This document shows positions 5,636 through 64,000 of a stretch of DNA of 64,000 nucleotides, piece by piece. Position 1 is the first letter of the stretch, and each line of letters opens with the position of its first letter. Position numbers and translations under genes: made by a program. The notes beneath the pieces were generated by a model, which was not told where the DNA came from, searched no databases, and worked only from the letters and a program-made list of their open reading frames with translations. This stretch comes from Candidatus Omnitrophota bacterium (GTDB lineage: Bacteria; Omnitrophota; Gorgyraeia; Gygaellales; Profunditerraquicolaceae), in assembly GCA_026387335.1 (NCBI GenBank), contig JAPLLX010000004.1, positions 255,045 to 319,044 on the forward strand. Reading direction: 5' to 3'.

Positions 5636-5836
5636 TTAACCATACGGTAACATCCGCTTAAGGTATTTTGTTTCTTTTTTGTTATCTAAAATATCTCTTT
5701 TTCTCAACTTCCTGATCCTCTTCATCTTCTTGCTGGAAGCAAGATGGCTCTTGCCGCCGCGAGAATATTTGATCTTACCTCTTTTGGTAAGCTTGAATCT
5801 TTTGGAAACACTTTTTTTGGTTTTTAATTTTCCCAT
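5636..5836 (-). CDS. rpmI: 50S ribosomal protein L35
   Basis: MGKLKTKKSVSKRFKLTKRGKIKYSRGGKSHL is typical L35; 66 aa. Confidence 0.9.
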   Translation of the reverse strand: MGKLKTKKSVSKRFKLTKRGKIKYSRGGKSHLASSKKMKRIRKLRKRDILDNKKETKYLKRMLPYG

Positions 5837-5850
5837 TTTTATCCTTTCAA

Positions 5851-6366
5851 CTATTTGGGCGCCACTACAAAAGACATAATTCTGCCTTCCATCATTGGCG
5901 GCTTCTCCACCTGTCCGTCGGTTTGCACATCCTGAATGAATTTATCTAAAACCTTTCTTCCTAAGTCCACATGCTCCATCTGCCTTCTGCGGAAAAAAAG
6001 GTTGATCCTGACTTTATCTTTTTTCTTTAAAAAACTAACCGCCTGTTTTACTTTGGTCTCAAAGTCATGGTCGTCAATATTAGGCTTTAGCCGGATCTCT
6101 TTCAACTTACCCTGCTTCTGGTGTTTCTTGGCCTCGCGCTCCTTCTTCTCCTCGTCGTATTTAAATTTACTGTAGTCAACTATGCGGCAGACCGGAGGAT
6201 TGGCGGAAGGCGCGACCTCCACTAAATCCAACTCCGACTGATTGGCTAAATCTAAAGCCCTTTGTATTGCCATTACCCCTAATTGATTACCGTCCGGGCC
6301 GACAACCCTGACCTGCGGAACCCTGATCCTATCGTTAGTGCGGATAAACTTTTTTATAGCAACCAC
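5851..6366 (-). CDS. infC: translation initiation factor IF-3
   Basis: VRVVGPDGNQLGVM...PPVCRIVDYSKFKYDE matches IF-3; infC-rpmI-rplT operon order. Confidence 0.9.
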   Translation of the reverse strand: MVAIKKFIRTNDRIRVPQVRVVGPDGNQLGVMAIQRALDLANQSELDLVEVAPSANPPVCRIVDYSKFKYDEEKKEREAKKHQKQGKLKEIRLKPNIDDHDFETKVKQAVSFLKKKDKVRINLFFRRRQMEHVDLGRKVLDKFIQDVQTDGQVEKPPMMEGRIMSFVVAPK

Positions 6367-6383
6367 CTCCTCTTTCTTGTTGG

Positions 6384-25796: not shown

Positions 25797-26449
25797 TGCT
25801 TTATATAGTCGCTACCCCTATAGGTAATCTAAAGGACATAACCTTTCGCGCTATCGAAGTATTCAAGAGCGTGGATTTGATTGCCTGTGAAGATACCCGG
25901 CATACCAAGATCCTTCTGGATCACTATGGTATTACTAAGCCCACCACGAGTTTCTTTCAGCATAATAGATTTACCAAGGCCGAATATCTGCTCGGGCTTT
26001 TAAAAGAAGGCAAAAACGTGGCCCTTGTTTCGGATGCCGGCACGCCCGGGATACTGGATCCCGGGTATAATCTGATTAATCTGGCTATCAAGAACGCTAT
26101 AGAGCTGACTTTTATTCCGGGGCCCGCAGCTTTTGTCAACGCTTTGGTGCTTTCGGGAAAACCCGCCCACGAATTCTATTTTGCCGGTTTCCTGCCGAAT
26201 AAAAAAATATCCCGCAAGAATAAGCTGAAAGCGTTAAGCGGCTTAAAATGCACGGTTATTTGCTACGAATCGAGCCATCGCATCTTAGCCAGCCTGGAAG
26301 ATTTAGCGGATGTTTTTGGCGATAGGCAAATCGTGGTTGCCCGGGAATTAACCAAGAAATTTGAAGAAGTTATCCGTTCTACCCCCCAGTTGATCCAGGA
26401 GAAGCTGCGTAATTCTAAGCCCCGCGGGGAATTTGTAATTGTAATTTAA
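25796..26449 (+). CDS. rsmI: 16S rRNA (cytidine1402-2'-O)-methyltransferase RsmI (short, ends inside a palindromic element)
   Basis: LYIVATPIGNLKDIT...ACEDTRHT, tetrapyrrole-methylase fold; 217 aa, ends at ...PRGEFVIVI with the stop codon inside the element. Confidence 0.85.
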   Translation: MLYIVATPIGNLKDITFRAIEVFKSVDLIACEDTRHTKILLDHYGITKPTTSFFQHNRFTKAEYLLGLLKEGKNVALVSDAGTPGILDPGYNLINLAIKNAIELTFIPGPAAFVNALVLSGKPAHEFYFAGFLPNKKISRKNKLKALSGLKCTVICYESSHRILASLEDLADVFGDRQIVVARELTKKFEEVIRSTPQLIQEKLRNSKPRGEFVIVI

Positions 26450-26511
26450 ATAGGGACAGCGACCATTTTTCTTGGTCGCCTAGAAGAGAAAAATGGTCGC
26501 TGTCCCTATTT
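26448..26511. repeat. family A palindromic element, copy 2
   Basis: 25-bp perfect inverted repeat identical to the other copies; overlaps the rsmI stop codon. Confidence 0.9.
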
Positions 26512-26519
26512 ATTTAGCC

Positions 26520-28187: not shown

Positions 28188-29448
28188 GGGCGGCAGAGTA
28201 GTCGACCCGGCGAATAAAATTGATGCGCTAATGGATATATTAGTGGAAGATTCTAAGATATCCAAAGTAGCTAAAAATATTCAAGGCGCAGCGGATAAGA
28301 TAATTGATGCGTCGGGCAAAATTGTTCTGCCGGGACTTGTAGATATGCATGTGCATTTGCGGGAGCCGGGCAGGGAAGATAAAGAAACAATCTGCAGCGG
28401 CTCAAAGGCTGCTTTAGCCGGCGGAGTGACTAGTGTCCTGGCCATGCCCAATACCTCTCCGGCAATAGACTCAAAAGAAAATATTAAAATTATAAAAACA
28501 GCTATCCAAAAAAGCGCCAAGGCCAATTGTTTCATCTGCGCCGCTATTACTAAAGGAAGGCTAGGAGAAGAGTTAAGCGATTTCGCCAGCCTTAAAAAAG
28601 AAGGCGCGATTGCCCTCTCTGATGACGGCTCGTCGGTAGATAAGGACGCCCTTATGCTGGAGGCGTTTAAGCAAGCCAAAAAAGAGGATATTCTGGTAAT
28701 CTGCCATAGCGAAGATAAAAAGCTGGCAGCTGGCGGGGTAGTAAATTTAGGTTTTACTTCTACGCGTCTGGGGTTGCGCGGCATATCAACCGAGTCAGAA
28801 TATAAAAGGGTTGAGCGCGACATAAGGTTAGCTAAAGAAACCGGCGCCAGGGTGCATATTGCCCACGTAAGCTGCCAAGAATCGCTGGAAATTATTGCCC
28901 GGGCCAAAAAAAATAAGGTCAGGGTTACCTGCGAGAGTGCGCCGCATTATTTTACTTTTAATGAAGAAGCGGTCTTAGGTTATGATCCTAATTTTAAAAT
29001 GAACCCGCCGCTACGCTCTAAAGAGGATATGTTGGCTATCCGTAAAGGTTTGGCCGACGGTTTAATAGACGTGATCGCCTCAGATCACGCTCCGCATACT
29101 GAAAATGAAAAGGATATTGAGTTTGAACGCGCGGAATGCGGGGTAATCGGCTTAGAAACCGAATTAGCCGCAGCTATCACAGAGTTGATAGGCAATAACT
29201 TATTGGACTGGAGTAAACTGGTCCTCAAAATGTCGTTAAATCCCAGCCGGATTTTAGGCCTGAATAAAGGGACATTAAGCGTCGGCGCTGACGCGGATAT
29301 TATAGTAGTTGACCCTGAAAGAGAATGGGTAGTAAAAAAAGAAAATTTCTATTCCAAGTCTAAAAACTCATCTTTTATCGGCCGTTCGCTTAAGGGTTTT
29401 GTAGAATACACGCTTTGCCAAGGTAAGGTGCACAAATGGAATTCATAG
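28171..29448 (+). CDS. pyrC: dihydroorotase
   Basis: LPGLVDMHVHLREPG metal-binding motif, DHAPH; 425 aa. Confidence 0.9.
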   Translation: MKTLIKGGRVVDPANKIDALMDILVEDSKISKVAKNIQGAADKIIDASGKIVLPGLVDMHVHLREPGREDKETICSGSKAALAGGVTSVLAMPNTSPAIDSKENIKIIKTAIQKSAKANCFICAAITKGRLGEELSDFASLKKEGAIALSDDGSSVDKDALMLEAFKQAKKEDILVICHSEDKKLAAGGVVNLGFTSTRLGLRGISTESEYKRVERDIRLAKETGARVHIAHVSCQESLEIIARAKKNKVRVTCESAPHYFTFNEEAVLGYDPNFKMNPPLRSKEDMLAIRKGLADGLIDVIASDHAPHTENEKDIEFERAECGVIGLETELAAAITELIGNNLLDWSKLVLKMSLNPSRILGLNKGTLSVGADADIIVVDPEREWVVKKENFYSKSKNSSFIGRSLKGFVEYTLCQGKVHKWNS

Positions 29449-31757
29449 CCGATTTTCATGTCCATTCTAAATACTCGCGGGCTACCAGCCGCAATATGGA
29501 TGTCAAGAATTTAAGCGAATGGGCGAAGTTAAAAGGAATCACCCTTATAGGCACGGGAGATTTTACGCATCATTTGTGGCTGGAAGAACTAAAACACACC
29601 TTAGAAGATTGCGGGAATGGGTTATACCAGCATAATGGGGTCTATTTTATCCTGACTGCCGAGGTAAGCAGCATATATTCCAAAAAAAATAAAACCTACC
29701 GCATACACAATGTCATCATCGCTCCATCATTTAAAACCGTGGATAAAATAAATGACAAACTCGGCCGGCTGGGCAACCTGGCCAGCGACGGAAGGCCTAT
29801 CTTAGGGCTGGATGCCGCAGAACTGGCGCGGATTGTCTTTGGTATTGATGAAAACTGTATACTTGTCCCCGGGCATATCTGGACGCCCTGGTTTTCCCTC
29901 TTTGGCTCTATGTCAGGGTTTGACAGGATAGAAGATTGCTTTGAAGAGCAGACACCGAAAATATTTGCTTTGGAAACGGGCCTGTCTTGTTATGATGAAA
30001 AAACAGAGGTTTTAACTGAAAATGGCTGGAAGAAGTTCCCTGAAGTCAGCTATTCCGATAAAATTTGCACTTTGAATATTAAGACCGATAGAATTGAATT
30101 TCAAATTCCGCAAAGAATTTCTAATTATATTTATAAAGGGAAAATGTATAAACTCAGAACTAAAAGAGTAGATTTATTGGTAACCCCTAATCATAAGCTA
30201 CTATATAGCCCCTGCGATTTTAGAAACCGTAAGCCTTATTCTTTGAAAGAAGCAGAAAAGTTATTTAATAAATCCAAAATATTGAAAAAAGACGGTATCT
30301 GGATTGGAGAGAAACCAAAATATTTTACACTACCCGAAGTTAAAATGCAGCATGGTAGTAGATATTATTCCGGATTTCGTAATAAAAAAGAAAATCGCTT
30401 ACCTCTAAAACCCTGGCTAAAGTTTTTTGGTTTCTGGCTTGCAGAGGGCTGGACTAGCGAAGGCAAAGAGGGTGATTACAACGTTTGTGTATGTAACAAT
30501 GATGAAAATTTACTTAATGAAATGAAACAACTTCTTGAGTGCTTCGGTTATAAAGCTTATAAACGAGGTAACTTGGTTCGGGTGAGAGATTTTCAGTTAT
30601 TTCATTATTTAAGACAGTTTGGTAAATGTTATGATAAATTTATTCCATTGAATATTAAATCTCTCTCGAAAGAATTGTTAGAGATTCTATTACAATACTA
30701 TATTAAAGGGGACGGGCATATTTACGGAAGATCTGGAAAGGGTTTATCGGCAACAACCACCTCAATTCGTTTGCGTGACGATTTACAGGAGATAGCCCTA
30801 AAAATAGGGATTTCTGCGTATTACAAATTAGGCCAGAAAAAAGGTACCCCATTTTCTTCGCCCAGCACAAAAAAGATATACAAACAAAGAAACGATGCCT
30901 GGATTATTTATTTTATAAGGCGGAATAAACCAATAATTTTACCCTCAACAATAAAAAAACATAATTATACAGAAAAATGGGTAGATTACGAAGGATGGGT
31001 TTTCTGCGTTACTGTTCCTAATCATGTAATTTATATTCGCAGAAACGGTATTCCTCTTTGGTGCGGTAATTCCGACCCAGCAATGAATTGGCGCTTGAGC
31101 GCTTTAGATAAGTTTACCTTAATTTCCAATAGTGATGCACATTCACCGCAAAAAATTGGACGTGAGGGCAATGTCTTTGACTGCGAGCTTGATTATAAAA
31201 CAATAAGAGAAGTTTTAAAGACAAAAGATAAGAAACGGTTTTTATACACCATAGAGTTTTTCCCGGAAGAGGGGAAGTATCATTTTGACGGGCACCGGCT
31301 TTGCGGTATCCGTTGGTCGCCGAAGGAAACAAAAGAACACGCTGGCAAGTGCCCAAAATGCGGTAAGCCGGTTACTGTCGGGGTAGTGAACCGTGTAGAA
31401 AAATTAGCCGATAGGCCGCAAGGTTTTAAGCCCGAGAACGCCATACCTTTTAAACATTTAATACCTTTGGATGAAATAATCGCCGATGCCAAAGGCGTAG
31501 GCAAAACCAGTGTTGCGGTAGAAAGAGATTACCGGAGTTGCCTGAGTAAATTTGGGACAGAGTTTGAAATCCTGATGGCTGCTCCCAAGCAGGATCTGCT
31601 TAAAGGTTTACCTCCTAAAGTTGCGGAGGGGGTTCTAAGAGTACGTGAAGGTAAAGTCGATATTCAGGCTGGCTACGATGGCGAATATGGAATAATCTCT
31701 ATCTTTGGGAAGGAAGAGCCTGGCCAGAAAAACGAAGAACAATTGAGTTTATTTTAA
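29436..31757 (+). CDS. endonuclease Q (EndoQ-like PHP-domain DNA nuclease) interrupted by an intein. Host protein is residues 1-184 plus 546-773 (412 aa).
   Basis: N-extein DFHVHSKYSRATS...LIGTGDFTHHLW...ETGLS; C-extein SDPAMNWR...LISNSDAHSP...CGIRWSPKETKEHAGKCPKCG (Zn-ribbon), as in archaeal EndoQ; 773 aa in total. Confidence 0.8.
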   Translation: MEFIADFHVHSKYSRATSRNMDVKNLSEWAKLKGITLIGTGDFTHHLWLEELKHTLEDCGNGLYQHNGVYFILTAEVSSIYSKKNKTYRIHNVIIAPSFKTVDKINDKLGRLGNLASDGRPILGLDAAELARIVFGIDENCILVPGHIWTPWFSLFGSMSGFDRIEDCFEEQTPKIFALETGLSCYDEKTEVLTENGWKKFPEVSYSDKICTLNIKTDRIEFQIPQRISNYIYKGKMYKLRTKRVDLLVTPNHKLLYSPCDFRNRKPYSLKEAEKLFNKSKILKKDGIWIGEKPKYFTLPEVKMQHGSRYYSGFRNKKENRLPLKPWLKFFGFWLAEGWTSEGKEGDYNVCVCNNDENLLNEMKQLLECFGYKAYKRGNLVRVRDFQLFHYLRQFGKCYDKFIPLNIKSLSKELLEILLQYYIKGDGHIYGRSGKGLSATTTSIRLRDDLQEIALKIGISAYYKLGQKKGTPFSSPSTKKIYKQRNDAWIIYFIRRNKPIILPSTIKKHNYTEKWVDYEGWVFCVTVPNHVIYIRRNGIPLWCGNSDPAMNWRLSALDKFTLISNSDAHSPQKIGREGNVFDCELDYKTIREVLKTKDKKRFLYTIEFFPEEGKYHFDGHRLCGIRWSPKETKEHAGKCPKCGKPVTVGVVNRVEKLADRPQGFKPENAIPFKHLIPLDEIIADAKGVGKTSVAVERDYRSCLSKFGTEFEILMAAPKQDLLKGLPPKVAEGVLRVREGKVDIQAGYDGEYGIISIFGKEEPGQKNEEQLSLF
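29988..31070 (+). mobile_element. intein (361 aa) with LAGLIDADG homing-endonuclease domain, inserted in the EndoQ ETGLS|SDP motif
   Basis: Block A CYDEKTEVLTENGW, block B VTPNHKLLY, DOD motifs FFGFWLAEGWTS and LLQYYIKGDGHIYG, block G VFCVTVPNHVIYIRRNGIPLWCGN followed by +1 Ser. Removing it restores a contiguous EndoQ motif. Confidence 0.8.
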
Positions 31758-37708: not shown

Positions 37709-38633
37709 ACTCTTCCTGCGCGATAAGAATAAATTTAGTTCTTATTTAAACCTGGAAAGACACGCGTTAGCGGTCTATGCCTTCGCCAATATTTATATCT
37801 GGAGAAGATTCTTTGATATACGCTGGGCGGAAATTGCCGGCAGTCTGTGCGTATTTTTTCAGGATAAGATAGGCTCTTTTTTATATATCCCGCCCTTAGG
37901 AAAAACCCGGGATCCGCAGGTAGTGCAGGAAAATTTCAAAATCCTGGAACGTTTGAATAAGAATCCGGAGTTTGCGCATATAGAAAATATTGAGGAGAAA
38001 GATAAAGGGTTTTACGAAGGCTTAGGGTTAGAATGCGCGTTTAAATCATATGATTATCTTTGCCGCAGAACGGAACTGGCGCAGTTACGCGGGAATAAAT
38101 TTAAATCTAAACGCTCCAGCTGCAATTTTTTTACCAAGCGCTACGATTTCAGTTACGCCAAGCTTACTTTAAAAGAGAGGGGTAGCTGTTTTAAATTATA
38201 TAACCTCTGGGCTCAACAGCGTAACTTGGGTAACCCGGATCATATTTATCAGGGTATGTTATCCGATAGCCGGGTTTCCTTAAAAGAAGCGTTGGTTAAT
38301 TACGCGGATTTAGGCTTTCAGGGTGCGGTAGTAAAAATAGATAAAGAGGTAAAGGGCTTTACTTTCGGGTTTCCTTTAAGCCCGGATACCTTTTGTATAT
38401 TATACGAGATAACCGATTTATCCGTAAAAGGCCTGGCCCAATTTATCTTCCGCTCCTTCGCCCAGGAACTTAAGAGTTACAAATATATTAATATAATGGA
38501 TGACTCTGGGCTAGAAAATTTAAAGAAAGTAAAATTATCGTATCACCCGGAGAAATTGGTTCCGGCGTATATTGCTAGAAGAAAACCAACTTCAGGGACG
38601 GTTCTCAACTCAAAGCAAAAGTGTCCCCATTAA
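37695..38633 (+). CDS. DUF2156 (MprF C-terminal-like, aminoacyl-tRNA-dependent transferase fold) stand-alone protein. The last 13 codons and the stop are supplied by a family B palindromic element.
   Basis: C-terminal NLKKVKLSYHPEKLVPAYIA resembles the MprF/LPG-synthase C-terminal motif GLxxFKxKFxPxWxPxY; 312 aa; overlaps the upstream gene by 14 nt. Confidence 0.6.
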   Translation: MRLNKLFLRDKNKFSSYLNLERHALAVYAFANIYIWRRFFDIRWAEIAGSLCVFFQDKIGSFLYIPPLGKTRDPQVVQENFKILERLNKNPEFAHIENIEEKDKGFYEGLGLECAFKSYDYLCRRTELAQLRGNKFKSKRSSCNFFTKRYDFSYAKLTLKERGSCFKLYNLWAQQRNLGNPDHIYQGMLSDSRVSLKEALVNYADLGFQGAVVKIDKEVKGFTFGFPLSPDTFCILYEITDLSVKGLAQFIFRSFAQELKSYKYINIMDDSGLENLKKVKLSYHPEKLVPAYIARRKPTSGTVLNSKQKCPH

Positions 38634-38668
38634 GGGGACACTTTAAGATTGGCTCGAGAACCGTCCCT
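38594..38668. repeat. family B palindromic element, copy 1. Nested inverted repeats: outer AGGGACGGTTCTC...GAGAACCGTCCCT, inner AAAGTGTCCCC-loop-GGGGACACTTT.
   Basis: Seen directly; the copy at 59969-60043 is its near-exact reverse complement. Confidence 0.9.
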
Positions 38669-38676
38669 AATCTGAT

Positions 38677-54308: not shown

Positions 54309-55010
54309 GTGAAGATTAGTGTAATCGGACTGCCCGGCTTAAACCCCGGAAAACATAATATTAAGGATTCTCGTCTTGATCAAGTGGATAGCATAACTAA
54401 AGCCAAGAAGAGGACCTACATTCAAGTTGAAGTCGTTTCCGAAAACGGGGCAATAGACGCGGACGCGATTTTAGTCGTCAAAAATTCATCCTCGGACGTA
54501 ATCTTAAAAGACCTGGAATTTGTGGAGACGCGGCTGGCGCGGGCCACCGAGGAAGCGGAAAAGAATTTATTTAACAAACTAAAGGGCATACTGGAAAAAG
54601 AGGAATTTATCTCCCGCGCGGCTTTAAACCCCGACGAGAAAAAAGAATTGGTTAAATACGGTTTACTTAGCGCTAAACCGGTTATTGTCGCTAGCGAGCA
54701 AGACCTGGAAGACCAAAACAGTTTATTACTCAGGGCCTTAAAAGAGGGAGGCTTTCTGAGCTTTTTTACAACCGGCGAAAAAGAGACCCGGGCCTGGCTT
54801 ATAAGATGTGGAGATACTGCCTGGGTCGCTTCGGGCGCGATACATTCGGATATACAGCAGGGTTTTATCCGGGCCGAAATTATCGCTTTCCAGGATTTTA
54901 TGGAATGCGGTGGTGAATCCAAGGCTAAGCAGGCGGGTAAAATGCGCCTTGAGCCCAAAGAATACATCATGCAGGACTGTGATCTGGCAAACTTTCGGTT
55001 TAATAAATAG
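54309..55010 (+). CDS. YchF/Obg-like ATPase paralogue with degenerate P-loop and truncated G domain but intact C-terminal TGS domain
   Basis: N-terminal ISVIGLPGLNPGKHN versus canonical GIVGLPNVGKST; DSRLDQVDSI aligns with YchF DPRLDQLAEI; C-terminal TGEKETRAWLIRCGDTAWVASGAIHSDIQQGFIRAEI...GKMRLEPKEYIMQDCDLANFRFN matches the YchF TGS domain; 233 aa versus about 360 for YchF. Confidence 0.65.
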   Translation: MKISVIGLPGLNPGKHNIKDSRLDQVDSITKAKKRTYIQVEVVSENGAIDADAILVVKNSSSDVILKDLEFVETRLARATEEAEKNLFNKLKGILEKEEFISRAALNPDEKKELVKYGLLSAKPVIVASEQDLEDQNSLLLRALKEGGFLSFFTTGEKETRAWLIRCGDTAWVASGAIHSDIQQGFIRAEIIAFQDFMECGGESKAKQAGKMRLEPKEYIMQDCDLANFRFNK

Positions 55011-55022
55011 GGAGAGATTATA

Positions 55023-56537
55023 ATGGTGAAGATTAAACGGGCGTTGATCAGCGTATCGGATAAAACAGGAATATTAGATTTCGCGAAAGAGTTAAATAAA
55101 TTCGGCGTGGAAATCCTCTCTACGGGTGGCACGGCAAAATTATTGCGCGAAAATAATATTCCGGTAAAAGAAGTATCCGAATATACGGGATTTCCGGAGA
55201 TGCTTGACGGCCGGGTTAAAACGCTGCATCCCAAAATACACGGCGGGCTTCTGGCTTTGCGGGATAACCCCGAGCATATGGCTACGCTCAAAGATCATGG
55301 TATCGGTTTAATCGATATGGTAGCGGTAAATCTTTATCCGTTTGAAAAAACCACCCAAAAACCCGGGGTAGCGATAGAAGAGGTGATTGAAAATATTGAT
55401 ATCGGCGGGCCGTCCATGCTGCGCTCCGCCGCTAAAAATCACCGCTCAGTAGCGGTTATCTGTAATCCGGGAAGGTACCCCCAGGTCATCGAAGAATTAA
55501 AGAAAAATAACGGCTGCCTGCCGGATAGCCTTTTACGCGATTTAGGCATTGAAGTTTTTAGCCGCACATCCCAATACGATGGAGCGATATTTGCGTATCT
55601 TAACAAATGGAATAACGGCTCTAAAACAGCAGCAATAGGCATTTTCCCCGATACGCTTACTTTATCTTTTGAAAAAATTCAGGATTTACGTTACGGCGAG
55701 AATCCCCATCAAAAAGCAGCCTTCTACAAAGAAAAAGGGAAGTCGGTAGGGTTGATAAACCTTAAGCAATTACAGGGTAAAGAGTTATCTTTTAATAATA
55801 TATTGGATTTAAATGCCGCTTTGGAATTAGTGCGGGAATTCAGCCAACCAGCTGCGGTAATCGTCAAACATAATAATCCCTGCGGAGTGGCTGAAGATAA
55901 AACTCTGGAAAAAGCATTTTTATACGCCTGGAAGTGTGACCCGCTCTCCGCTTTCGGCGGAATTGTCGCTTTAAACCGTAAGCTGGATTTAAAAACCGCT
56001 AAAGTGATAGCTAAAAGTGGATTCTTAGAATGTATTATCGCTCCCGGGTTTGAACAGGAAACGCTAGAGTTATTTAAAGAAAAAAAGAATTTACGCATTT
56101 TGGAATTTTATGGCTTAGAGCCGATAAACGAGCCGGAGTTTAAACGCGTAAGCGGCGGGTTGTTACTCCAGGATAAAGATTTGGCGACCCTGGATTTAAA
56201 TAACCTGAAAGTGGTTACTAAAAGAAAGCCGACCAAGCAAGAGATGACTAGTTTGATTTTTGGTTGGAAAGTAGCCAAGCATGTAAAATCCAACGCCATT
56301 ATTTTAACCAAGGGGACTAGGGCCGTCGGCATCGGCGCGGGGCAGATGTCCCGGGTGGATTCAGTTATGATTGCTAAGAAAAAATCCGGCAAGTTAAGCG
56401 CCAATTCCTGTTTAGCTTCCGACGCCTTCTTCCCTAAGCCGGACGCTATTTCCTGGGCCCATAAAGCCGGCGCTAAAGCGATAATCCAGCCCGGCGGCTC
56501 AATCGCCGACCAGAATCCAGGCCTGCGACAAATATAA
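55023..56537 (+). CDS. purH: bifunctional AICAR formyltransferase / IMP cyclohydrolase
   Basis: MGS-like N-terminal domain (ALISVSDKTGI) plus AICARFT domain; 504 aa. Confidence 0.92.
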   Translation: MVKIKRALISVSDKTGILDFAKELNKFGVEILSTGGTAKLLRENNIPVKEVSEYTGFPEMLDGRVKTLHPKIHGGLLALRDNPEHMATLKDHGIGLIDMVAVNLYPFEKTTQKPGVAIEEVIENIDIGGPSMLRSAAKNHRSVAVICNPGRYPQVIEELKKNNGCLPDSLLRDLGIEVFSRTSQYDGAIFAYLNKWNNGSKTAAIGIFPDTLTLSFEKIQDLRYGENPHQKAAFYKEKGKSVGLINLKQLQGKELSFNNILDLNAALELVREFSQPAAVIVKHNNPCGVAEDKTLEKAFLYAWKCDPLSAFGGIVALNRKLDLKTAKVIAKSGFLECIIAPGFEQETLELFKEKKNLRILEFYGLEPINEPEFKRVSGGLLLQDKDLATLDLNNLKVVTKRKPTKQEMTSLIFGWKVAKHVKSNAIILTKGTRAVGIGAGQMSRVDSVMIAKKKSGKLSANSCLASDAFFPKPDAISWAHKAGAKAIIQPGGSIADQNPGLRQI

Positions 56538-56584
56538 AATCGCCATGGTTACTACCGGCATAAGGCACTTCAGGCACTAATGAA

Positions 56585-57958
56585 ATGTCCTACCCAGAAG
56601 CTCTCCGATACCTGGAATCTTTTGTCAACTACGAAAAGTTTTCCAGCTACCCTTATCAAGAAGCCTTAAACTTAAAACGCGTTCAGGGTTTTTTAAATTT
56701 AGTCAAGAATCCCGAGCGTTCCTTAAGATTTATCCACGTAGCCGGAACAAAAGGCAAAGGCTCAACCTGCGCTTTTATTACCTATATATTAAGGGAAGCC
56801 GGGTTTAAAACCGGCTTATATACTTCTCCGCACCTAATTGATTTTAGAGAACGCATCAGGATTTTAAATAGGGACAGCGACCATTTTTCTTGGTCGCATA
56901 GACAGAAAAATGGTCGCTGTCCCTATTTAAGTGACTTTGAAGGAATGATCTCTAAGCGCAAACTGGCCAGCTTAGTGGATAGATTAAAACCCGCGCTAGA
57001 AAAATATAACCGCGTTTCAATTTACGGCGCGCTTTCCTTTTTTGAAATATGCACAGTTTTAGCTTTTATGTATTTCAAAGACGAAGGGGTAGACTTAGCG
57101 GTTTTAGAGACCGGATTAGGCGGGAGGCTGGACGCCACTAATATTGTTGAGCCTAAAGTGTGCGTTCTTACCCCCATAAGTTATGAGCATATGGATAAAT
57201 TAGGTCATACCTTAAAGAAGATAGCGGCGGAGAAAGCCGGGATTATTAAAAGAAATTCAATTGTTATTTCCGCGCCGCAAGTGAAAGAAGCAGGAAGAGT
57301 TATCAGTGATAAATGTAAGCAAGAAAATGCCAAACTATTCCTGGTAGGAAAAGATATAAAATATAGCGGCTCGGAGAATAAATTCAGAGTCACTACCCCT
57401 TACGCAGACTACAAAGATTTAAAGATAAGATTATGCGGCCGGCATCAAGTGCTGAACGCCGCAATGGCCCTGGCCGCAGTTAGCGCTCTCGGTAAGTGTA
57501 ATATCAAAGTCCGGATTGATTCTATCAAGAAAGGGCTCTATAATACTTTATGGCCGGGTAGATGCGAGGTCGTGGCTAAAAATCCTCTCATAATCCTGGA
57601 TGGCGCGCAAAACGCCGCTTCGGCAAAGGTTTTAAAAAAAGCGGTTCAAGAAAGGTTTCGTTACCGCAAGCTTATCCTTATACTCGGAGTTTCTAACGAT
57701 AAAGATATAAAAGGGATCGCGGATGAGCTTTATGCTTTAGCCGGTACAGTTATATTAACCAAAGCGAATAATTCGCGCGCAACTGATCCGAGAATCCTCG
57801 CCGGATATTTTAGAAAAAAAGATAAATATATCACTAATGGCCTAGCCGAAGCTAAAATATTGGCCCAGAAGCTGGCTAAAAAGGAAGACCTGATATTAGT
57901 TACCGGCTCTCTTTTTGTGGTAGGCGAATTCAAAAATGATAAATCACGACTTAACTGA
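56585..57958 (+). CDS. folC: folylpolyglutamate synthase / dihydrofolate synthase carrying an in-frame 21-codon palindromic-element insertion
   Basis: Mur-ligase P-loop HVAGTKGKGST, SPHLIDFRERIRI, LETGLGGRLDATNIV; the insertion [21 protein letters not shown] is encoded by a family A element. Confidence 0.85.
   Translation: MSYPEALRYLESFVNYEKFSSYPYQEALNLKRVQGFLNLVKNPERSLRFIHVAGTKGKGSTCAFITYILREAGFKTGLYTSPHLIDFRERIRILNRDSDHFSWSHRQKNGRCPYLSDFEGMISKRKLASLVDRLKPALEKYNRVSIYGALSFFEICTVLAFMYFKDEGVDLAVLETGLGGRLDATNIVEPKVCVLTPISYEHMDKLGHTLKKIAAEKAGIIKRNSIVISAPQVKEAGRVISDKCKQENAKLFLVGKDIKYSGSENKFRVTTPYADYKDLKIRLCGRHQVLNAAMALAAVSALGKCNIKVRIDSIKKGLYNTLWPGRCEVVAKNPLIILDGAQNAASAKVLKKAVQERFRYRKLILILGVSNDKDIKGIADELYALAGTVILTKANNSRATDPRILAGYFRKKDKYITNGLAEAKILAQKLAKKEDLILVTGSLFVVGEFKNDKSRLN
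56866..56928. repeat. family A palindromic element, copy 3, inside the folC coding sequence (63 bp, in frame)
   Basis: Perfect 25-bp inverted repeat identical to the intergenic copies. Confidence 0.9.
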
Positions 57959-59318
57959 TACAATCGCGGCGATTGCCACCCCTGTCGGTGAGGGCGGGAT
58001 AGGGATAGTGCGTATTAGCGGTAAGCTGGCGTTAGCTATCGCGGATAAGATATTTATTTCTCCCGCCGGAAAATTACCATCAACGCTTAAAACTTATACT
58101 ACGCATTATGGGACAATCGTCAAGGGCAAAAAGGTGATTGATGAAGTCATCCTTACGATTATGCGCTCCCCCAAGTCTTACACAAGAGAAGATATAGTTG
58201 AAATAAATTGCCACGGCGGAATAGTCGCTTTGCGGGGAGTGCTGGACCTGGTTTTAGCCAGCGGCGCGCGTATGGCTAGGCCGGGAGAATTTACCAAACG
58301 CGCGTTTCTAAACGGCAGGATTGATCTTACTCAGGCCGAGGCGGTCTTAGATATAATCCGGGCTAAAACCGATTCCGCTTTAAAGACGGGAATTGAGCAG
58401 CTAAAAGGCTCGCTCTCTAAGCAGATAAATAAATACAGGGAACTTTTATTAAACATACTCGCGCAATTAGAGGCAGGTATTGATTTTCCGGAAGAGTTAG
58501 TTTCTACGGAGGATTTAAAAACCATATCCAGAAAACTAGATGAGGTTCATAATGGCTTGGAGGGGTTGATTAAAGATTCCCGCCTGGCCAGGATATTACG
58601 CGAAGGAATACATGTGGTTATCTGCGGAAAACCCAACGTCGGAAAATCATCCCTTTTAAACGCGCTGCTTAAAGAGGAGCGCTCAATAGTCACTCCTATT
58701 GCCGGGACTACCCGCGACACGATAGAAGAGGTAATAGATATTCAAGGAATACCGGTTAGGATAGTGGATACTGCCGGGATATTGGAGCCGCGGGATTTAG
58801 TGGAAAAAGAAGCGGTCAAGCGCTCAAAGGAACAGATTGCCGCTGCGGATTTAATAATTATTTTATTTGACGCTAGCAAGAAGCTCTCCCCGGAAGACCT
58901 CTTTCTTATCCGGAAATTAAAGAAAAAAAAGGTTATCGCTTTAATAAATAAGTCCGACCTTAAGCAGAAAATTGAAAAAGGAAGGTTAGAAAAGATATTT
59001 AAGAGCGTAGTAGATATATCGGCTAAAAAACTGATCAATATAGATCTTTTGGAAAAGGCTATCGCGGATTTAGTTTACGGCGGCTCAGTTGCCCAGGCTG
59101 AATCATTACTGGTGGCTAATTTAAGGCACAGAAATATGATTCAAAAGGCGAAGATTATTATTGCGCAAGCCCGCGAATCGTTAGATAATAGCTTGCCAGC
59201 GGAATTTATTGCTCAGGATTTAAAAGAGGCGTTAGGGCATCTGGATGAAGTATCCGGCAGGAAGTTTTCCGAGGATTTATTGGATAAGATATTCTCGGAA
59301 TTTTGTATCGGTAAATAA
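57936..59318 (+). CDS. mnmE: tRNA modification GTPase MnmE/TrmE
   Basis: N-terminal TIAAIATP, G-domain GKPNVGKSSLLNAL, C-terminal CIGK; 460 aa. Confidence 0.92.
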   Translation: MINHDLTDTIAAIATPVGEGGIGIVRISGKLALAIADKIFISPAGKLPSTLKTYTTHYGTIVKGKKVIDEVILTIMRSPKSYTREDIVEINCHGGIVALRGVLDLVLASGARMARPGEFTKRAFLNGRIDLTQAEAVLDIIRAKTDSALKTGIEQLKGSLSKQINKYRELLLNILAQLEAGIDFPEELVSTEDLKTISRKLDEVHNGLEGLIKDSRLARILREGIHVVICGKPNVGKSSLLNALLKEERSIVTPIAGTTRDTIEEVIDIQGIPVRIVDTAGILEPRDLVEKEAVKRSKEQIAAADLIIILFDASKKLSPEDLFLIRKLKKKKVIALINKSDLKQKIEKGRLEKIFKSVVDISAKKLINIDLLEKAIADLVYGGSVAQAESLLVANLRHRNMIQKAKIIIAQARESLDNSLPAEFIAQDLKEALGHLDEVSGRKFSEDLLDKIFSEFCIGK

Positions 59319-59327
59319 ATAGGATAT

Positions 59328-59390
59328 AAATAGGGACAGCGACCATTTTTCTTGGTCGCCTAGACAGAAAAACGGTCGCTGTCCCTATTT
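59328..59390. repeat. family A palindromic element, copy 4 (mnmE-folE intergenic)
   Basis: Inverted repeat with one arm mismatch (ATGG/ACGG). Confidence 0.9.
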
Positions 59391-59404
59391 AATCAGGGAG
59401 AATT

Positions 59405-59962
59405 ATGAATAAGAAAAAGATTGAGAGAGCAGTGTACGATATATTGGAAGCGATAGGCGAGAACCCGAAGAAAAAGGACCTTCTGGAAACTCCTAAGCGC
59501 GTAGCTGAAATGTACGAAGAAATATTTTCCGGTATCAAGCAGGACCCCGAGAAAGAGTTAGAAGTTATTTTAGACCAGAAACATCATGAAATCATCCTAC
59601 TTAAAGGAATACCTCTCTACTCGATCTGCGAACATCATTTGCTTCCTTTTGTGGGTAAGGCCAGCATAGCTTATATCCCTAAGAGTGGCCGGGTTACGGG
59701 TTTGAGTAAATTAGCCCGGGTGGTAGATATTTTAGCCCACCGGCCGCAAGTACAGGAGCGCCTGACTACCCAGATAGCCGAGATTATTATGTCTAAATTA
59801 AGGCCCTTAGGGGTAATGGTGGTTATTGAGGCTGAACATATGTGCATGTCTTTGCGCGGAGTAAGGAAACCCGGGACGCTTACCATTACCTCAGCCGTGC
59901 GCGGTATATTTAAAGAGAATGAAAAGACGCGCTCAGAGGCCTTAGCTTTGATTAAATCTTAG
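59405..59962 (+). CDS. folE: GTP cyclohydrolase I
   Basis: [10 protein letters not shown] zinc-binding motif; 185 aa. Confidence 0.92.
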
Positions 59963-59968
59963 AATCTT

Positions 59969-60043
59969 AGGGACGGTTCTCAAGCCAATCTCAAAGTGTC
60001 CCCTAACAGGGGACACTTTTGCTTTGAGTTGAGAACCGTCCCT
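59969..60043. repeat. family B palindromic element, copy 2 (reverse orientation relative to copy 1)
   Basis: AGGGACGGTTCTCAAGCCAATCTCAAAGTGTCCCCTAACAGGGGACACTTTTGCTTTGAGTTGAGAACCGTCCCT; preceded by the tandem direct 8-mer AATCTTAGAATCTTAG. Confidence 0.9.
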
Positions 60044-60061
60044 GACTGATGGAGGAATATT

Positions 60062-60400
60062 ATGACGCATAAAAGCCAAGGTAAGTCATCACTAGGGATG
60101 GAAGCCAATATTGCCGCGCTCTTAAGCTACCTTTTGGGTTTTGTCTCCGGGATAATCTTTTACGCTTTAGAGAAAGAAAATAAGTTTGTGCGTTTCCACG
60201 CGATGCAATCGATCGTGGTTTTCGCGTTTTTATTTGTTTTAAACATGGTCGTAAAACTCTTACCTTTAATAGGTTGGACCATCTCCACTCTTTTGGGCAT
60301 AATAGGCATAGTCATCTGGGTTCTCCTTATGGTTAAAGCCTACAACGGAGAATATTTCAAACTGCCGGTTGCCGGAGAGATTGCCGAGAAAAACTCCTAA
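60062..60400 (+). CDS. DUF4870-family small membrane protein
   Basis: ANIAALLSYLLGFVSGIIFYALEKENKFVRFHAMQSIVVF pattern; 112 aa. Confidence 0.55.
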   Translation: MTHKSQGKSSLGMEANIAALLSYLLGFVSGIIFYALEKENKFVRFHAMQSIVVFAFLFVLNMVVKLLPLIGWTISTLLGIIGIVIWVLLMVKAYNGEYFKLPVAGEIAEKNS

Positions 60401-60518
60401 AGAAAGCGCTTTCTAAAACACTGGATATTCCCTTGAAACCCGTAGGAATCAAGGGCATACTAGTAATGCATAGTCAAACAGGCCATTATGCCTGCGCCAG
60501 ACAGGAGAGCGTTAACCG

Positions 60519-60860
60519 ATGCCCGGTAATTATCCTCAAGAAAAAAGGAAGCTAGTCCGTTTTCTCATCACTATACCCTTAAAACACATTAAGATCAGCA
60601 TGAGAAGTTTTAACTCCTCCTGCACTCATGACATAAGCGCGCAAGGCGTAGGCCTGATCACTCCCGAGGAGCTTCCCGTAAATACCCCTTTAATTTTATG
60701 CCTTAAGATTCCGGATAACGGAGAAGAGATATCTTTAGAGGCAGAGGTAGTCTGGTCAACGCGAATGTCTTCTGAGCAATACCGCTCCGGCCTTAAGCTT
60801 AAAAATAATCCGATCAAACCCATCCCCCTCGTATTAAGGACAATTTATTCCAAATTATAA
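60519..60860 (+). CDS. PilZ domain protein (c-di-GMP receptor-like)
   Basis: RKLVRF...DISAQGVGL PilZ signature; 113 aa. Confidence 0.6.
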   Translation: MPGNYPQEKRKLVRFLITIPLKHIKISMRSFNSSCTHDISAQGVGLITPEELPVNTPLILCLKIPDNGEEISLEAEVVWSTRMSSEQYRSGLKLKNNPIKPIPLVLRTIYSKL

Positions 60861-60935
60861 TCTTGATTGACATACCCCGCTGGAAGTAGTATCATATCTT
60901 TAATCGTCTAACTGACCCAATAATAAAAAACTAAG

Positions 60936-61751
60936 ATGACCAAAATTAAAACTCAAGTTTCCATAATCCTCGCGGTTATATTCCTGTCGGGTTGCGCCTG
61001 CTATAGTTTTAAAAAAGGCGAGTCTCCCTACAATAACGGTTTTGTAGCCTCAAGATACGGCAGAGTACTTCCTGAATATACCATCGGTAAAGACAATTCT
61101 GTCCCGGATGAAGCGGTAGCTAAGGAACGCTTCAAAAGGCGTAGGATTGAAGTCGAGGCTTATTATAAAAAAATGGGTTATATTAAAAACCGCTTTAGAC
61201 AGATGTTTATTGACCCGCCTTTTTTTATGATTCAGGCTGTATCCGGTGTGTTCTATATGCCATCAGTAGCTATCAATGATTACAAATATAATCACGATGC
61301 CGCATATAAAGAGAAGATAGACAAACAGGAAGATGCTGAGTATAGGGCTGAAAAAGAGCGGCTCAGGGTTTTAAAGGAGAAACTAAACTCTTACATTCAG
61401 AATGATTTACAGAAAGAAACGCCCGCAGTCGCGCCAACCGCAGAACCGGTTAAAAAAGAATCTTTGCCACCGGAAAAGGCCAAGCCAGTTGTTAGTGAAG
61501 AAGCTCTTGCGCCTAAGGCCGTAGAAGCTCCTGCCAAGGAAGTGGCTGCGAAGATTCCTAACGCGGTTATCGTTGCTAAACCCCTGAAAGGGGTTTCGCC
61601 TTTAACTGTGCAATTTTACGGTTCTAAATCTTCTTCTCCCAACGGCAGGATAATCTCTTATCTTTGGGATTTTGGCGACGGAGATACCTCTACAAAGAAG
61701 AATCCTATGAATACCTACTGGAGCACAACCTACGGCTCGCGTAAACATTGA
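60936..61751 (+). CDS. lipoprotein with Pro/Ala/Lys-rich linker and a C-terminally truncated PKD domain
   Basis: Lipobox LSGCA; PKD-like LTVQFYGSKSSSPNGRIISYLWDFGDGDTSTKKNPMNTY then stops mid-domain, 25 nt before a family A element; 271 aa. Confidence 0.5.
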   Translation: MTKIKTQVSIILAVIFLSGCACYSFKKGESPYNNGFVASRYGRVLPEYTIGKDNSVPDEAVAKERFKRRRIEVEAYYKKMGYIKNRFRQMFIDPPFFMIQAVSGVFYMPSVAINDYKYNHDAAYKEKIDKQEDAEYRAEKERLRVLKEKLNSYIQNDLQKETPAVAPTAEPVKKESLPPEKAKPVVSEEALAPKAVEAPAKEVAAKIPNAVIVAKPLKGVSPLTVQFYGSKSSSPNGRIISYLWDFGDGDTSTKKNPMNTYWSTTYGSRKH

Positions 61752-61775
61752 AGTACTTTCAAAATAAAACTCTTT

Positions 61776-61836
61776 AAATAGGGACAGCGACCGTTTTTTG
61801 TCTATGCGACCAAAAAAACGGTCGCTGTCCCTATTT
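61776..61836. repeat. family A palindromic element, copy 5 (variant arms ...CCGTTTTTT)
   Basis: Seen directly. Confidence 0.85.
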
Positions 61837-62114
61837 AATTCGATTTTTGAGTTTTAGCTGAAATAAAAGATATTGTAAATATTAGGGATACGTCAAAACC
61901 GCCTCTTACTTTCAAAACCCCGAAAATAGCTATTTTTAGCAAAATAAACCCTTCAAATTTATCAAATCCCAAAAATCTCCGCTTCCGACGGAAAAATCAA
62001 AGATTTTACTTGACAAAATGTATAATATGCTTTATCATTTGTTATTATATTATAGTACTTACTATAATACACTATATACTGCTATTTGTTCTGCATTTAA
62101 AAAAAGGAGCACTA

Positions 62115-62345
62115 ATGAACAAAACCTTAATCTCACCTATTGAAATCAGTAAAAAATACAACATCTCCTATCAAACAATAAATTATTACACTAATCTGGG
62201 TTTATTAAAAGTGCGCCGGCGCGAAGGAAATAACCGGTTGTATAACAACAGGGAAGTGCGCTCGGGGTTAAGCAGGATAACGAAATTAAAGAGCCAGGGT
62301 TATTCCTTGCATCTTATCCGCGGGATTGTCATGAAAGAACAATGA
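62115..62345 (+). CDS. MerR-like HTH transcriptional regulator (short)
   Basis: ISPIEISKKYNISYQTINYYTNLGLL resembles the MerR N-terminal HTH. Start placed at the internal ATG (MNKTLIS); the ORF-track start at 62010 adds an implausible hydrophobic leader. Confidence 0.5.
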   Translation: MNKTLISPIEISKKYNISYQTINYYTNLGLLKVRRREGNNRLYNNREVRSGLSRITKLKSQGYSLHLIRGIVMKEQ

Positions 62346-63166
62346 GCTATTACTCGGTATTAGGCCTGAATAAAGAACCTTTTTCCACCAGCCCCGACCC
62401 GGAGTTTTTCTACGAGTCCAACGAGCATAAAGCCTGTCTCCTGCGGGTATTGGTAGAAATACGGCTGCGCCGGGGCTTAAGCGTTATTTTAGGAGATGTA
62501 GGCGTTGGTAAGACCACACTTTCACGTAAGCTTTTTCAGATGCTTAAAGAAAGACCGGATATACTTTTTTATATGGTGTTGGACCCGACTACCCCCAACG
62601 AAGAACTATTTCTGGAGTCATTAGTGCGGACGTTTAATATCCAGGATGAGCTCAAAACTTCACCCAGCATACTGGATTATAAAGAGGCGATCAAAAAATT
62701 TCTTTTTCAAAAAGGCGTAGAGGAAAATAAAACAATAGTTTTTGTTATAGACGAAGCCCAAAAACTTAATCCGGCTGCTTTGGAGATGCTACGCGTTTTA
62801 TTAAATTATGAGACTAATGAATATAAATTATTGCAGCTGGTTTTATTCTCGCAGATGGAGCTTTTGCCCCGGATAAAAGAGATTAAAAACTTTTTTGACC
62901 GGATAGTGCTTAAATATGTTATTAACCCTCTGGATGAAAAAGAGACCAGGGACATGATTAATTTTCGGTTGCAGCAGTCGGGCTTTAACTCAGAGCTGAA
63001 ACTCTTTACCGATGAGGCAATTAGCGAGATCCATCATTATAGCCAGGGTTACCCGCGCAGGATCAACCTGATTTGCCATAACGCGCTAAGGAATCTGATC
63101 ACCTCTAACCGGACAGTGATCGACGCTACCTTAGTGCGGGACCTGATAGCCAGGAGCGCAGTATAA
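62342..63166 (+). CDS. ExeA/GspA/MshM-type AAA+ ATPase of type II secretion / type IV pilus systems
   Basis: Walker A LGDVGVGKTTL, Walker B IVFVIDEAQ; 274 aa. Confidence 0.7.
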   Translation: MSYYSVLGLNKEPFSTSPDPEFFYESNEHKACLLRVLVEIRLRRGLSVILGDVGVGKTTLSRKLFQMLKERPDILFYMVLDPTTPNEELFLESLVRTFNIQDELKTSPSILDYKEAIKKFLFQKGVEENKTIVFVIDEAQKLNPAALEMLRVLLNYETNEYKLLQLVLFSQMELLPRIKEIKNFFDRIVLKYVINPLDEKETRDMINFRLQQSGFNSELKLFTDEAISEIHHYSQGYPRRINLICHNALRNLITSNRTVIDATLVRDLIARSAV

Positions 63167-63168
63167 CA

Positions 63169-63825
63169 ATGGATAAAGGGACCTCCGACGAAAGACTGCT
63201 TAAATTGATTGAAGGTGGCGCCGCGGGCGAAGCTAAACGCAAACAAAATATCGGCATAAGCCCTAAAAAATCATTCTCCGAGCTTATGCAGACGTCTAAA
63301 TTTAATCTAAGTTTGAAGGCGATTAAGGAGTTTAAACCCAATATCGTCGTCCTGAATAAAGGGTTAATGGTGTTGGCGGCAATAGTCACGGTCATACTGA
63401 TCTATAGCCTTTTTAGCGGGCCGGTCTTTTCAGCCTCTAATGCAGCATATTTTACTTCTGCCGATGTCTCTGCCGTAGCCAAACAATTATCCGCGAAAGA
63501 AAATCCGGGTTTGCTCCGCAAAAATATATTAAGCCAGGACATTAAGCGGAATGTTTTCCTGGCTCCGGGAACCAAGCTCACCTCGCTTACAGAAGCCGCC
63601 TCCGCCAATGTAACCGAGGTCGCTAAAGACCTAAAATTAGTGGGGATTATCTGGTCAGCTAACCCGGAGGTAATGATCGAATACGGAAAAGATTCCCGGA
63701 CCTATACCTTAAAGAAAGGGGATTCTTTTAACGGAGATCAATTTAAGGTTAAAGATGTTGCGCGTAACTTTGCGGTCTTAGAAGTTTCTATTGACGGTAG
63801 AGTAAACGAGTATGTGTTAAGATGA
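63169..63825 (+). CDS. bitopic membrane protein, possible GspB/PilP-like partner of the ExeA ATPase
   Basis: Single TM helix LMVLAAIVTVILIYSLF, C-terminal beta-rich domain; 218 aa; sits between the ATPase and the secretin. Confidence 0.4.
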   Translation: MDKGTSDERLLKLIEGGAAGEAKRKQNIGISPKKSFSELMQTSKFNLSLKAIKEFKPNIVVLNKGLMVLAAIVTVILIYSLFSGPVFSASNAAYFTSADVSAVAKQLSAKENPGLLRKNILSQDIKRNVFLAPGTKLTSLTEAASANVTEVAKDLKLVGIIWSANPEVMIEYGKDSRTYTLKKGDSFNGDQFKVKDVARNFAVLEVSIDGRVNEYVLR

Positions 63826-64000
63826 GCCGGCTGCGTTCTTTCTTTATATTTACGGTCATCTGTTTATTGAGTTTTAACTTCCTGTTGGCCCAGGACGCTA
63901 AAGAAGCTAAAATGAACGAACTACTGGAAAAACCTCTGCCAACAGAAGAAAAAAAGATTTCGCTGGATTTAAAAGGCATAGACATCAATGAGCTCTTTAA
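63822..64000 (+). CDS. secretin (PilQ/GspD-like) N-terminus, partial
   Basis: Own translation: MSRLRSFFIFTVICLLSFNFLLAQ (signal peptide) ... KISLDLKGIDINELF (secretin N-terminal motif); runs off the window. Confidence 0.45.
   Translation, partial: MSRLRSFFIFTVICLLSFNFLLAQDAKEAKMNELLEKPLPTEEKKISLDLKGIDINELF

Follow-up and report, generated by a model that had tools for sequence, protein, structure and literature searches.

Five palindromes dispersed through a 64-kb stretch of Omnitrophota DNA (the whole stretch analysed, called the window below) are probably non-autonomous, MITE-like dimers of terminal inverted repeats (TIRs) that derive from a RAYT/TIRYT mobile unit of ~0.75 kb and were moved in trans. 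The same ends enclose a transposase gene in many other genomes, elements of intermediate size connect the two forms, and the corresponding sites in close relatives are empty.

The palindromes measure 67–71 bp, have arms of 26–28 nt and lie in a window with a G+C content of 43.8%. An earlier note on this DNA had located five copies, and all are present within 3 nt of the positions that it gave, in the gene contexts that it described (rpmI-rplT, the rsmI stop, folC, mnmE-folE and a PKD gene). Its description of the arms as perfectly complementary holds for four copies and fails for the focal one. Units and arms are as follows.

Copy 1, 5566–5635, minus strand: 70-nt unit, TAAATAGGG...CCCTATTTATTTA in the minus-strand reading, directly 3′ of the rpmI stop codon and 5′ of the rplT ribosome-binding site; arms 5568–5595 and 5610–5637 (28 nt, 100% complementary).
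Copy 2, 26447–26516, plus strand: 70-nt unit, 100% identical to copy 1, with a TTGACA...TATACT promoter-like site downstream, then pyrR; arms 26447–26472 and 26487–26512 (26 nt, 100% complementary).
Copy 3, 56863–56931, plus strand: 69-nt unit, in frame within folC; arms 56864–56890 and 56904–56930 (27 nt, 100% complementary).
Copy 4 (focal), 59319–59389, plus strand: 71-nt unit, inserted cleanly 3′ of the mnmE stop (AAATAA) and 5′ of the TAATCAGG that precedes folE; arms 59327–59352 and 59366–59391 (26 nt, 96% complementary, one A.C mismatch).
Copy 5, 61773–61841, minus strand: 67–69-nt unit, 3′ of the PKD-domain gene; arms 61774–61799 and 61813–61838 (26 nt, 100% complementary).

A search of the window for the 20-mer TTTAAATAGGGACAGCGACC with up to 3 mismatches returned 10 matches, two per copy, and none in 100 shuffles. 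The exact 10-mer ATAGGGACAG occurs in the window only in the ten arms, so that solo or decayed copies are absent from it. Because the opening three bases vary among copies (TTT, AAT, TAT), the true arm start is (T)AAATAGGG. The arms enclose a centre of 13–14 nt with GGTCGC, common to all five copies as GGTCGC[C/A]TAGA..., which occurs in both orientations as had been noted earlier, copies 1 and 5 being inverted relative to copies 2–4. Over a 70-nt block that includes an asymmetric TTTA tail, identity between copies 1 and 2 is 100%, while that between copies 3 and 4 is 97%; the greatest divergence is seen in copy 5, with G/C for A/T at position 21 of both arms and a shorter centre. Unit boundaries vary by a few nucleotides among copies, and part of the terminus is often repeated at one end (TTTA follows copies 1 and 2; the 9–10-nt ATAGGATAT lies left of the palindrome of copy 4).

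We predicted the RNA folds of the full hairpins at −42 to −47 kcal/mol (z = −11.6 to −14.6), and the alternative pairing between arm and centre that the earlier note had raised does form a hairpin when folded as DNA, at a predicted −7.4 kcal/mol. Taken alone, an arm (AAATAGGGACAGCGACCATTTTT) is not self-complementary and lacks GTAG. No Rfam family matched at the window elements (all families, gathering thresholds).

We next turn to the ends in other genomes. In a collection of species-representative genomes, the 17-mer AAATAGGGACAGCGACC was present in more than 118 stretches, which is a lower bound. Labelled by record title, the matches listed include ~36 stretches from Omnitrophota (~22 MAGs), 17 from Planctomycetota (including Kuenenia and Scalindua), 19 from Nitrospirota/Thermodesulfovibrionia, 14 from Desulfobacterota-type ‘delta’ MAGs and 8 from Clostridia MAGs, with single or few matches from Elusimicrobia, Desantisbacteria, Firestonebacteria, WOR-3, Aerophobetes, Armatimonadetes and Chloroflexi, and with one actinomycete MAG and one Aenigmatarchaeota MAG. 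The end sequence recurs under more than 12 taxonomic labels, mostly of uncultivated bacteria. Taxonomic labels of MAGs can be wrong on short contigs; several matches come from contigs between 60 kb and 1.7 Mb long, and mis-binning is thus unlikely as a general explanation. The 11-kb contig with the Aenigmatarchaeota label (L034) holds three decayed copies of the transposase unit and reflects either cross-domain spread or mis-binning.

We also considered whether single 17-mer matches could be chance, since ~70 chance matches are estimated for this 596-Gb collection. Among the matches listed, the 17-mer is followed by R-T-T-T-T (T at 94–97% for the first two T positions) and preceded by A/T in 92%, so that the end consensus reads W-AAATAGGGACAGCGACC-R-TTTT. 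Bases beyond the searched 17-mer are conserved, and nearly all listed matches are therefore homologous and not chance; the few that look like chance are L001, L011, L022 and L111. In the literature searched, we found no mention of the end sequence. An extra CTATTT lies within 25 nt of the end in 17.8% of end flanks across phyla, compared to a background of 1.3%. Partial tandem reiterations of the terminal (C)CTATTT are seen, for example, at L085, L075, L077 and L006 and at 59319–59336 of the window, and such reiterations may be excision footprints or the result of end slippage. Several solo ends in Nitrospirota and Desulfobacterota-type MAGs (L003 at 2823, L037, L087, L106 and L069) adjoin a multi-copy motif, GCCCGCAACGGCAGATAAC, followed by a hairpin; this repeat had no Rfam match and is probably REP-like and unrelated, with common landing sites.

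The listed 17-mer matches contain nine inverted pairs of ends, with 724–776 bp between arm starts, at eight loci. A 220–222-aa open reading frame (ORF) lies between the ends and was read or matched at full length in L032, L010, L097, L046, L081, L110 and L040, while in L006 the match covered only a C-terminal remnant of the transposase. With a constant layout, the full unit runs from one end to a TTGAC(A) −35-like box, through ~40 nt to the ATG, and from the stop codon through ~5–20 nt to the inverted end. A full-length unit from Omnitrophota (L043, 6443–6459) has at its 5′ end the same 27 nt as the arms in the window. At this locus, a pair of ends ~1.5 kb apart (4918–6459) encloses the Y1 transposase gene together with a 249-aa ORF, which has a KxDG motif and a weak RNA_ligase Pfam match (24 bits, below cutoff) and may be a passenger gene.

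To avoid the bias of a search by DNA motif, 80 metagenome loci were fetched by the protein alone (53–68% identity), of which 77 were testable. An end with up to 3 mismatches lies within 130 nt upstream of the gene in 58 of the 77 loci and within 90 nt downstream in 62. Inverted ends of 22–28 nt, mostly ~725–780 bp apart, flank the gene in 8 pattern-found loci and in 48 protein-found elements; in the latter the spacing is 721–817 bp. In the protein-found loci, ATAGGGACAG is invariant and the inner hexamer is variable (GCGACC, GCGACT, GCGCCT, GCGCCC, GACACC, GATACC). The hexamer is the same at both ends in 36 of 48 elements, where 12.2 would be expected and none of 2000 shuffles gave more than 23; both ends of an element thus vary together.

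The protein between the ends is, by its sequence profile and modelled fold, a RAYT-like Y1 HUH tyrosine transposase. Pfam Y1_Tnp matches at 56–59 bits (cutoff 23), the best NCBIfam model is REP_Tyr_transpos at 65–74 bits (below its cutoff of 80), and the IS200 model scores 23–26 bits (cutoff 55). The conserved motifs are NHVH, HLWQGRF and RY[VI]ENNP, and a Pfam search found no HTH-type domain in the C-terminal part. A single transposase sequence had no match in the PDB; a 20-sequence profile was required to match 4ER8 (E. coli TnpA-REP, E = 7e-6), with NHVH, WQGRF and YxxNNP aligned. Among known folds, an AlphaFold model (pLDDT 90.4) is matched best by 4ER8 (E = 3e-8, target TM 0.75) and next by the TnpA proteins of IS608 and ISDra2. 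A full-length homologue on a P. aeruginosa plasmid (33% identical, YIELNP/NHVH) lies between 37-nt ends, ATAAAGGGGACAGAT.TATTTTCCC, and one on a plasmid of Rhodospirillum rubrum has TTAAAAGGGGTCAGACCCC at its flanks; both pairs of ends contain GGGGWSAS, as GGGGACAG and GGGGTCAG, respectively, a motif known from TIRYT ends (PMC3733652; PMC6006769). No relatives of the transposase were found on viral contigs. The earlier note had proposed a search for a cognate IS200/IS605 TnpA or RAYT gene, and a RAYT-like gene does lie between the same ends in many other genomes; none was detected by tblastn in the 64-kb window (best E = 1.3).

Short and full forms are connected by intermediates. The listed matches include 29 short dimers with unrelated centres, 10 elements of intermediate size and 82 solo ends. 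In L062, L034 and L084, remnants of the 5′ and/or 3′ coding sequence persist between the ends of partly deleted elements that measure 138–242 bp. These deletion intermediates bridge the full element and the short dimers and identify the window copies as MITE-like end dimers. Dimers and full units belong to one family.

We then compared filled sites in the window to orthologous sites in relatives. The main relative (ENA ERZ27250635, contig k141_943217; loci L119 of 21.3 kb and L203 of 5.3 kb) is syntenic with the window at 94.5–96.5% DNA identity. All four testable sites are empty in relatives of 95–96.5% DNA identity; an empty-site comparator was also sought for copy 2, and none was found. A search for the end sequence found no copy in the 21.3 kb of L119, and the part of L203 that was inspected directly, the rpmI-rplT spacer, is without the element; across the regions that match these two loci, the window has four copies. 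At mnmE-folE (copy 4), the site is empty in L119, which is 96.5% identical, and the 71-nt insertion is clean, with unambiguous boundaries and no target duplication. At rpmI-rplT (copy 1), the site is empty in L204–L206 (95.7% identical, GGTTAA/AAAGGAG), and the insert is the 70-nt block common to copy 2, with a 1-nt placement ambiguity and again no target duplication. Both clean insertions are at A/T-rich sites that contain TAA. The earlier suggestion that TTTAAA is the target is therefore abandoned, as TAAA belongs to the element itself.

The two other testable insertions replaced target DNA. In folC (copy 3), the 69-nt element stands in place of 36 nt of the relative, which encode a variable loop of 11–12 residues, and the reading frame is kept. 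More distant homologues have loops similar to that of the relative (TPKTKKIISGA), and the window's folC state is thus derived; for the same reason, the empty folC site is unlikely to reflect deletion of an ancestral element. After the PKD gene (copy 5), the element replaced ~118 nt of the relative; these ~118 nt were considered as a possible repeat in their own right, and they are not one in the sequences compared. With four of four testable sites empty, the elements arrived recently, in agreement with the recent mobility that the earlier note had read from the near-identity of the copies.

Some of the same intervals carry other repeats and changes. The exact rpmI-rplT spacer that holds copy 1 contains another palindrome of ~45 nt in the relative (L203, 2444–2478; ACACCCCGCGC..GCGCGGGTGT), and the gap between stop codon and ribosome-binding site is a repeated landing site. 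A second palindromic family of 79 nt occurs in the window at 38592–38670 and 59967–60045 (AGGGACGGTTCTCAA...GTGTCCCC/GGGGACAC...GAGAACCGTCCCT), where its two copies are 94% complementary to each other and contain a GGGGWSAS-type motif, GGGGACAC. The copy after folE is apparently common to L119 and would therefore be older than the burst of TIR dimers. The PKD gene (60936–61751 in the window, 14248–15273 in L119) encodes a protein of 271 aa in the window and one of 341 aa in the relative, a gap that comes from length changes in its internal repeat region and a 59-nt deletion near its 3′ end, apart from the element insertion.

A mechanism can be proposed for such dimers. The window elements keep only two full ends (26–28 nt) and a 13–14-nt centre, and the TIRYT would be supplied in trans, from elsewhere in the genome or from a gene since lost. 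The TIRYT would bind the stem of the paired ends in single-stranded DNA, which would take the form of a very stable hairpin in the miniature and of a panhandle in the full element. It would cut near the A/T-rich foot via a covalent tyrosine-DNA intermediate, and the unit would be rejoined at A/T-rich sites, often beside TAA stop codons. We infer this trans-acting binding, cutting and rejoining by homology to TnpA-REP and to IS608 TnpA. To our knowledge, no TIRYT has been shown biochemically to move anything, and TIRYTs are without experimental characterization.

Precise HUH ‘peel and paste’ does not predict that an insertion replaces part of its target, as happened in folC (36 nt) and after the PKD gene (~118 nt). 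Since tyrosine chemistry predicts neither replaced targets nor ragged boundaries, we give some weight to a different mechanism, in which another enzyme (a DDE transposase or recombinase) acts on double-stranded TIRs, or break repair or template switching captures hairpins, and the Y1 gene is a passenger. Terminal inverted repeats are a classic hallmark of DDE transposons and not of Y1 elements, and the architecture of the ends thus agrees with this mechanism, as do the imprecise boundaries, the replacement at two of four sites and the footprint-like stutter of the ends (17.8% against 1.3%). However, no ORF other than the Y1 gene lies between the ends of the full-length units read, the end spacing of the 48 protein-found units has room for one such gene, and no other transposase is nearby. 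DDE elements also normally make a target duplication, whereas the clean sites have none. We therefore consider a different enzyme or a repair-mediated capture improbable, though it merits consideration.

Alternatively, the palindromes could be structural or regulatory elements selected by the host, such as bidirectional terminators, mRNA stabilizers or RNase III sites, rather than selfish DNA. Their hairpin energies would suit such a role, as would the position of four of five copies at gene ends and the combination of a G+C-rich stem, an A/T-rich foot and a U-rich tail. Several observations oppose it. The orthologous sites are empty in relatives of 95–96.5% identity, and a transposase gene lies between the same ends elsewhere. 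One copy is intragenic and another separates rpmI from rplT, two co-transcribed genes between which termination would do harm. Neither orientation nor distance to the gene is fixed, and a simple terminator scan of 55000–64000 flagged none of the three copies there. Host selection thus has a low probability as the explanation of these elements.

The neighbouring genes encode L35 and L20, a TP_methylase (RsmI-like), a Mur-ligase (FolC), MnmE and GTP cyclohydrolase I, and a PKD protein. A TAA stop codon is adjoined or supplied by three of five copies; in rsmI, the TAA (26447–26449) is formed by the opening three bases of copy 2. In folC, the reading frame passes through the element, which contains no stop in that frame and encodes ~23 residues. 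In-frame intragenic copies are rare (one of the five window copies and one of 46 short dimers examined), and on these counts we rejected frequent in-frame intragenic insertion as a property of the family. The effects on the host, namely strong hairpins in operon transcripts, one supplied stop codon and one in-frame swap of a FolC loop, look incidental. Mechanical ORF calls start inside the element (ATGGTCGCTGTCCCTAT, read as MVAVPI...) or run through it (..RDSDQF..), as at 5553–5589 of the window, at L032 5395 and at the N-terminus of P0186, and give database proteins spurious N-terminal extensions (MVAVPI...). The window also contains a 6S RNA gene (1979–2111, minus strand; Rfam, 64 bits) and a 773-aa ORF (29436–31757, plus strand) whose same-strain copy has a weak LAGLIDADG_3 match and which possibly contains an intein.

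It could also be argued that each copy is the separate remnant of an inserted full-length element and that the miniature itself never moved, for which the deletion intermediates of many sizes in other genomes provide a precedent. Independent deletions would leave different junctions, but the five copies have one common centre and two of them an asymmetric 70-nt identity, indicating that the miniature was copied as a unit and not made five times; we regard separate remnants as very unlikely. An artefact of assembly or a chimera can be dismissed almost entirely: palindromes do break assemblies, and in a Logan assembly made independently for this strain (L122, 99.97% identity) a contig indeed begins inside the right arm of copy 2, but this start shows the same junction and thus that the element is real, the five copies each lie in a different unique context, the folC insertion is present in the NCBI protein MCX5695944.1 (100% identical FolC), and the family is found in hundreds of unrelated assemblies. 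A regular array, which the earlier note had named beside an artefact as a reason to discard its reading, and any CRISPR-like organization are equally at odds with the data, as the spacings range from 2.4 to 30 kb and the contexts are unrelated.

We compared the family of TIR dimers and full units to known systems. RAYT-like genes with long terminal inverted repeats, and not GTAG REPs, have been named TIRtrons or TIRYTs; GGGGWSAS is found in many of their ends, which are also present elsewhere alone, as dimers or in groups (Di Nocera et al. 2013, PMC3733652). Most TIRYTs have been placed in TnpA-Y1 subclass 2.1 (NHVH, W[EQ], YIELNP, ~238 aa), to which they are considered probably equal and which has been equated with RAYT Group 1 of Bertels (Quentin et al. 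2018, PMC6006769). Group 1 is reported to have only modest flanking 16-mer counts, hints of horizontal transfer and a presence on plasmids (Bertels et al. 2017, PMC5581495).

The elements described here have in common with TIRtrons and TIRYTs a RAYT-like Y1 HUH protein of ~220–240 aa with NHVH, a Y...NP motif and a C-terminal extension; a gene placed between long terminal inverted repeats instead of GTAG hairpins; GGGGWSAS in the ends, at 7/8 positions in the window (AGGGACAG) and at 8/8 in the end variants of L019, L059, L125, L132, L141 and L191 (GGGGACAG); and ends that are also scattered singly and as dimers (of which the 64 kb contain five). Four of the five defining features of a TIRYT are thus found, and for the fifth, a cognate gene in the same genome, the 64-kb window has none. 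They differ in the Y motif, which is Y[VI]ENNP here instead of YIELNP or Y[IV]HLNP and is nearer to that of subclass 2.4, with WQ as the W motif, and in a C-terminal part in which no HTH-type Pfam domain was detected. A further difference is the ATAGGGACAG-invariant end across proteins of 53–68% identity and many phylum-level labels, a breadth of end conservation that we did not find in the literature searched.

REPIN/RAYT systems (Bertels & Rainey 2011, PMC3116915) are similar in their inverted doublets, long hairpins, non-coding and mostly intergenic dispersal, and a Y1 gene with the same flanks, and the cognate protein's best structural match is 4ER8. In contrast, the elements here have no GT[AG]G tag, their single arms are not palindromic, REP_Tyr_transpos scores below cutoff, and they look horizontally spread instead of single-copy and vertical; in our reading of the 4ER8 alignment, the GTAG-recognizing residues E100, H101 and R104 (PMC6006769) appear unconserved. 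On these features, their precise class is that of TIR dimers of a TIRYT/TIRtron, and GTAG-type REP/REPIN membership was rejected. The ‘double-foot’ REPs of subclass 2.4 (PMC6006769), compared by description, also have a YIxNNP motif, a tag and its complement at both feet (here ATAG...CTAT), a stem that opens with three G-C pairs and reported in-frame gene insertions, but the tag here is ATAG and not GT[AG]G, and the protein has 220 aa compared to a median of 194.

The family differs from IS200/IS605 elements, with which it has the Y1 HUH fold and the absence of target-site duplication in common, in that those carry subterminal hairpins and no terminal inverted repeats. The inverted-repeat ends, together with the score of the IS200 model, exclude IS200/IS605 membership. 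Substrates of REP and IS200/IS605 systems are hairpins, while a single end here is not. MITE features are present in the terminal inverted repeats, the lack of coding capacity, a length below 300 bp and the internal deletion of an autonomous element; target-site duplication is absent at the two clean empty/filled pairs, which fits a Y1 rather than a DDE mechanism. The earlier note had offered MITE and RPE-like as options, and the MITE option is borne out by the same ends, the intermediates and the empty sites. RPEs are longer than the 67–71-bp units of the window. A Rickettsia RPE likewise is a palindromic repeat that sits in frame in a housekeeping gene and adds a peptide segment, but this in-frame habit is the only likeness and here concerns a single copy; RPEs are unrelated in sequence, are tagged with CGTC (PMC3733652), which is absent here, and have no dedicated transposase, so that RPE membership was rejected.

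It is possible, although we put this forward only tentatively and doubt it more than we favour it, that the elements belong to an active, horizontally spreading family of ~0.75-kb autonomous units whose Y1 transposase acts on the paired TIR stem and not on REP hairpins. Its ends of 22–28 bp would have remained nearly unchanged across Omnitrophota, Planctomycetota (anammox), Nitrospirota, Desulfobacterota, Clostridia and candidate phyla, it would have produced a burst of dimers in this lineage, and it would insert without duplication, at times with target replacement, leaving ‘footprints’ at the ends. If so, an active horizontal family would contradict the idea that RAYT-type genes are domesticated transposases, present in single copy and inherited vertically.

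This kind of element is known but barely studied, and is documented here for Omnitrophota as short perfect dimers with a common centre, in a pattern like that of a MITE burst. The weight of the finding rests mainly on the breadth of end conservation, on the lineage-specific burst with its natural empty sites and on the in-frame replacement of a FolC loop. The palindromes break metagenome assemblies, and many of the cognate genes lie on ~1-kb contigs. With more than 8000 database relatives of the cognate protein, 70-nt hairpin substrates and natural pairs of empty and filled sites, the family offers a concrete and abundant test system for Y1 transposases of the TIRYT type. In Omnitrophota and other uncultivated lineages, these elements can give housekeeping genes stop codons or new peptide loops.
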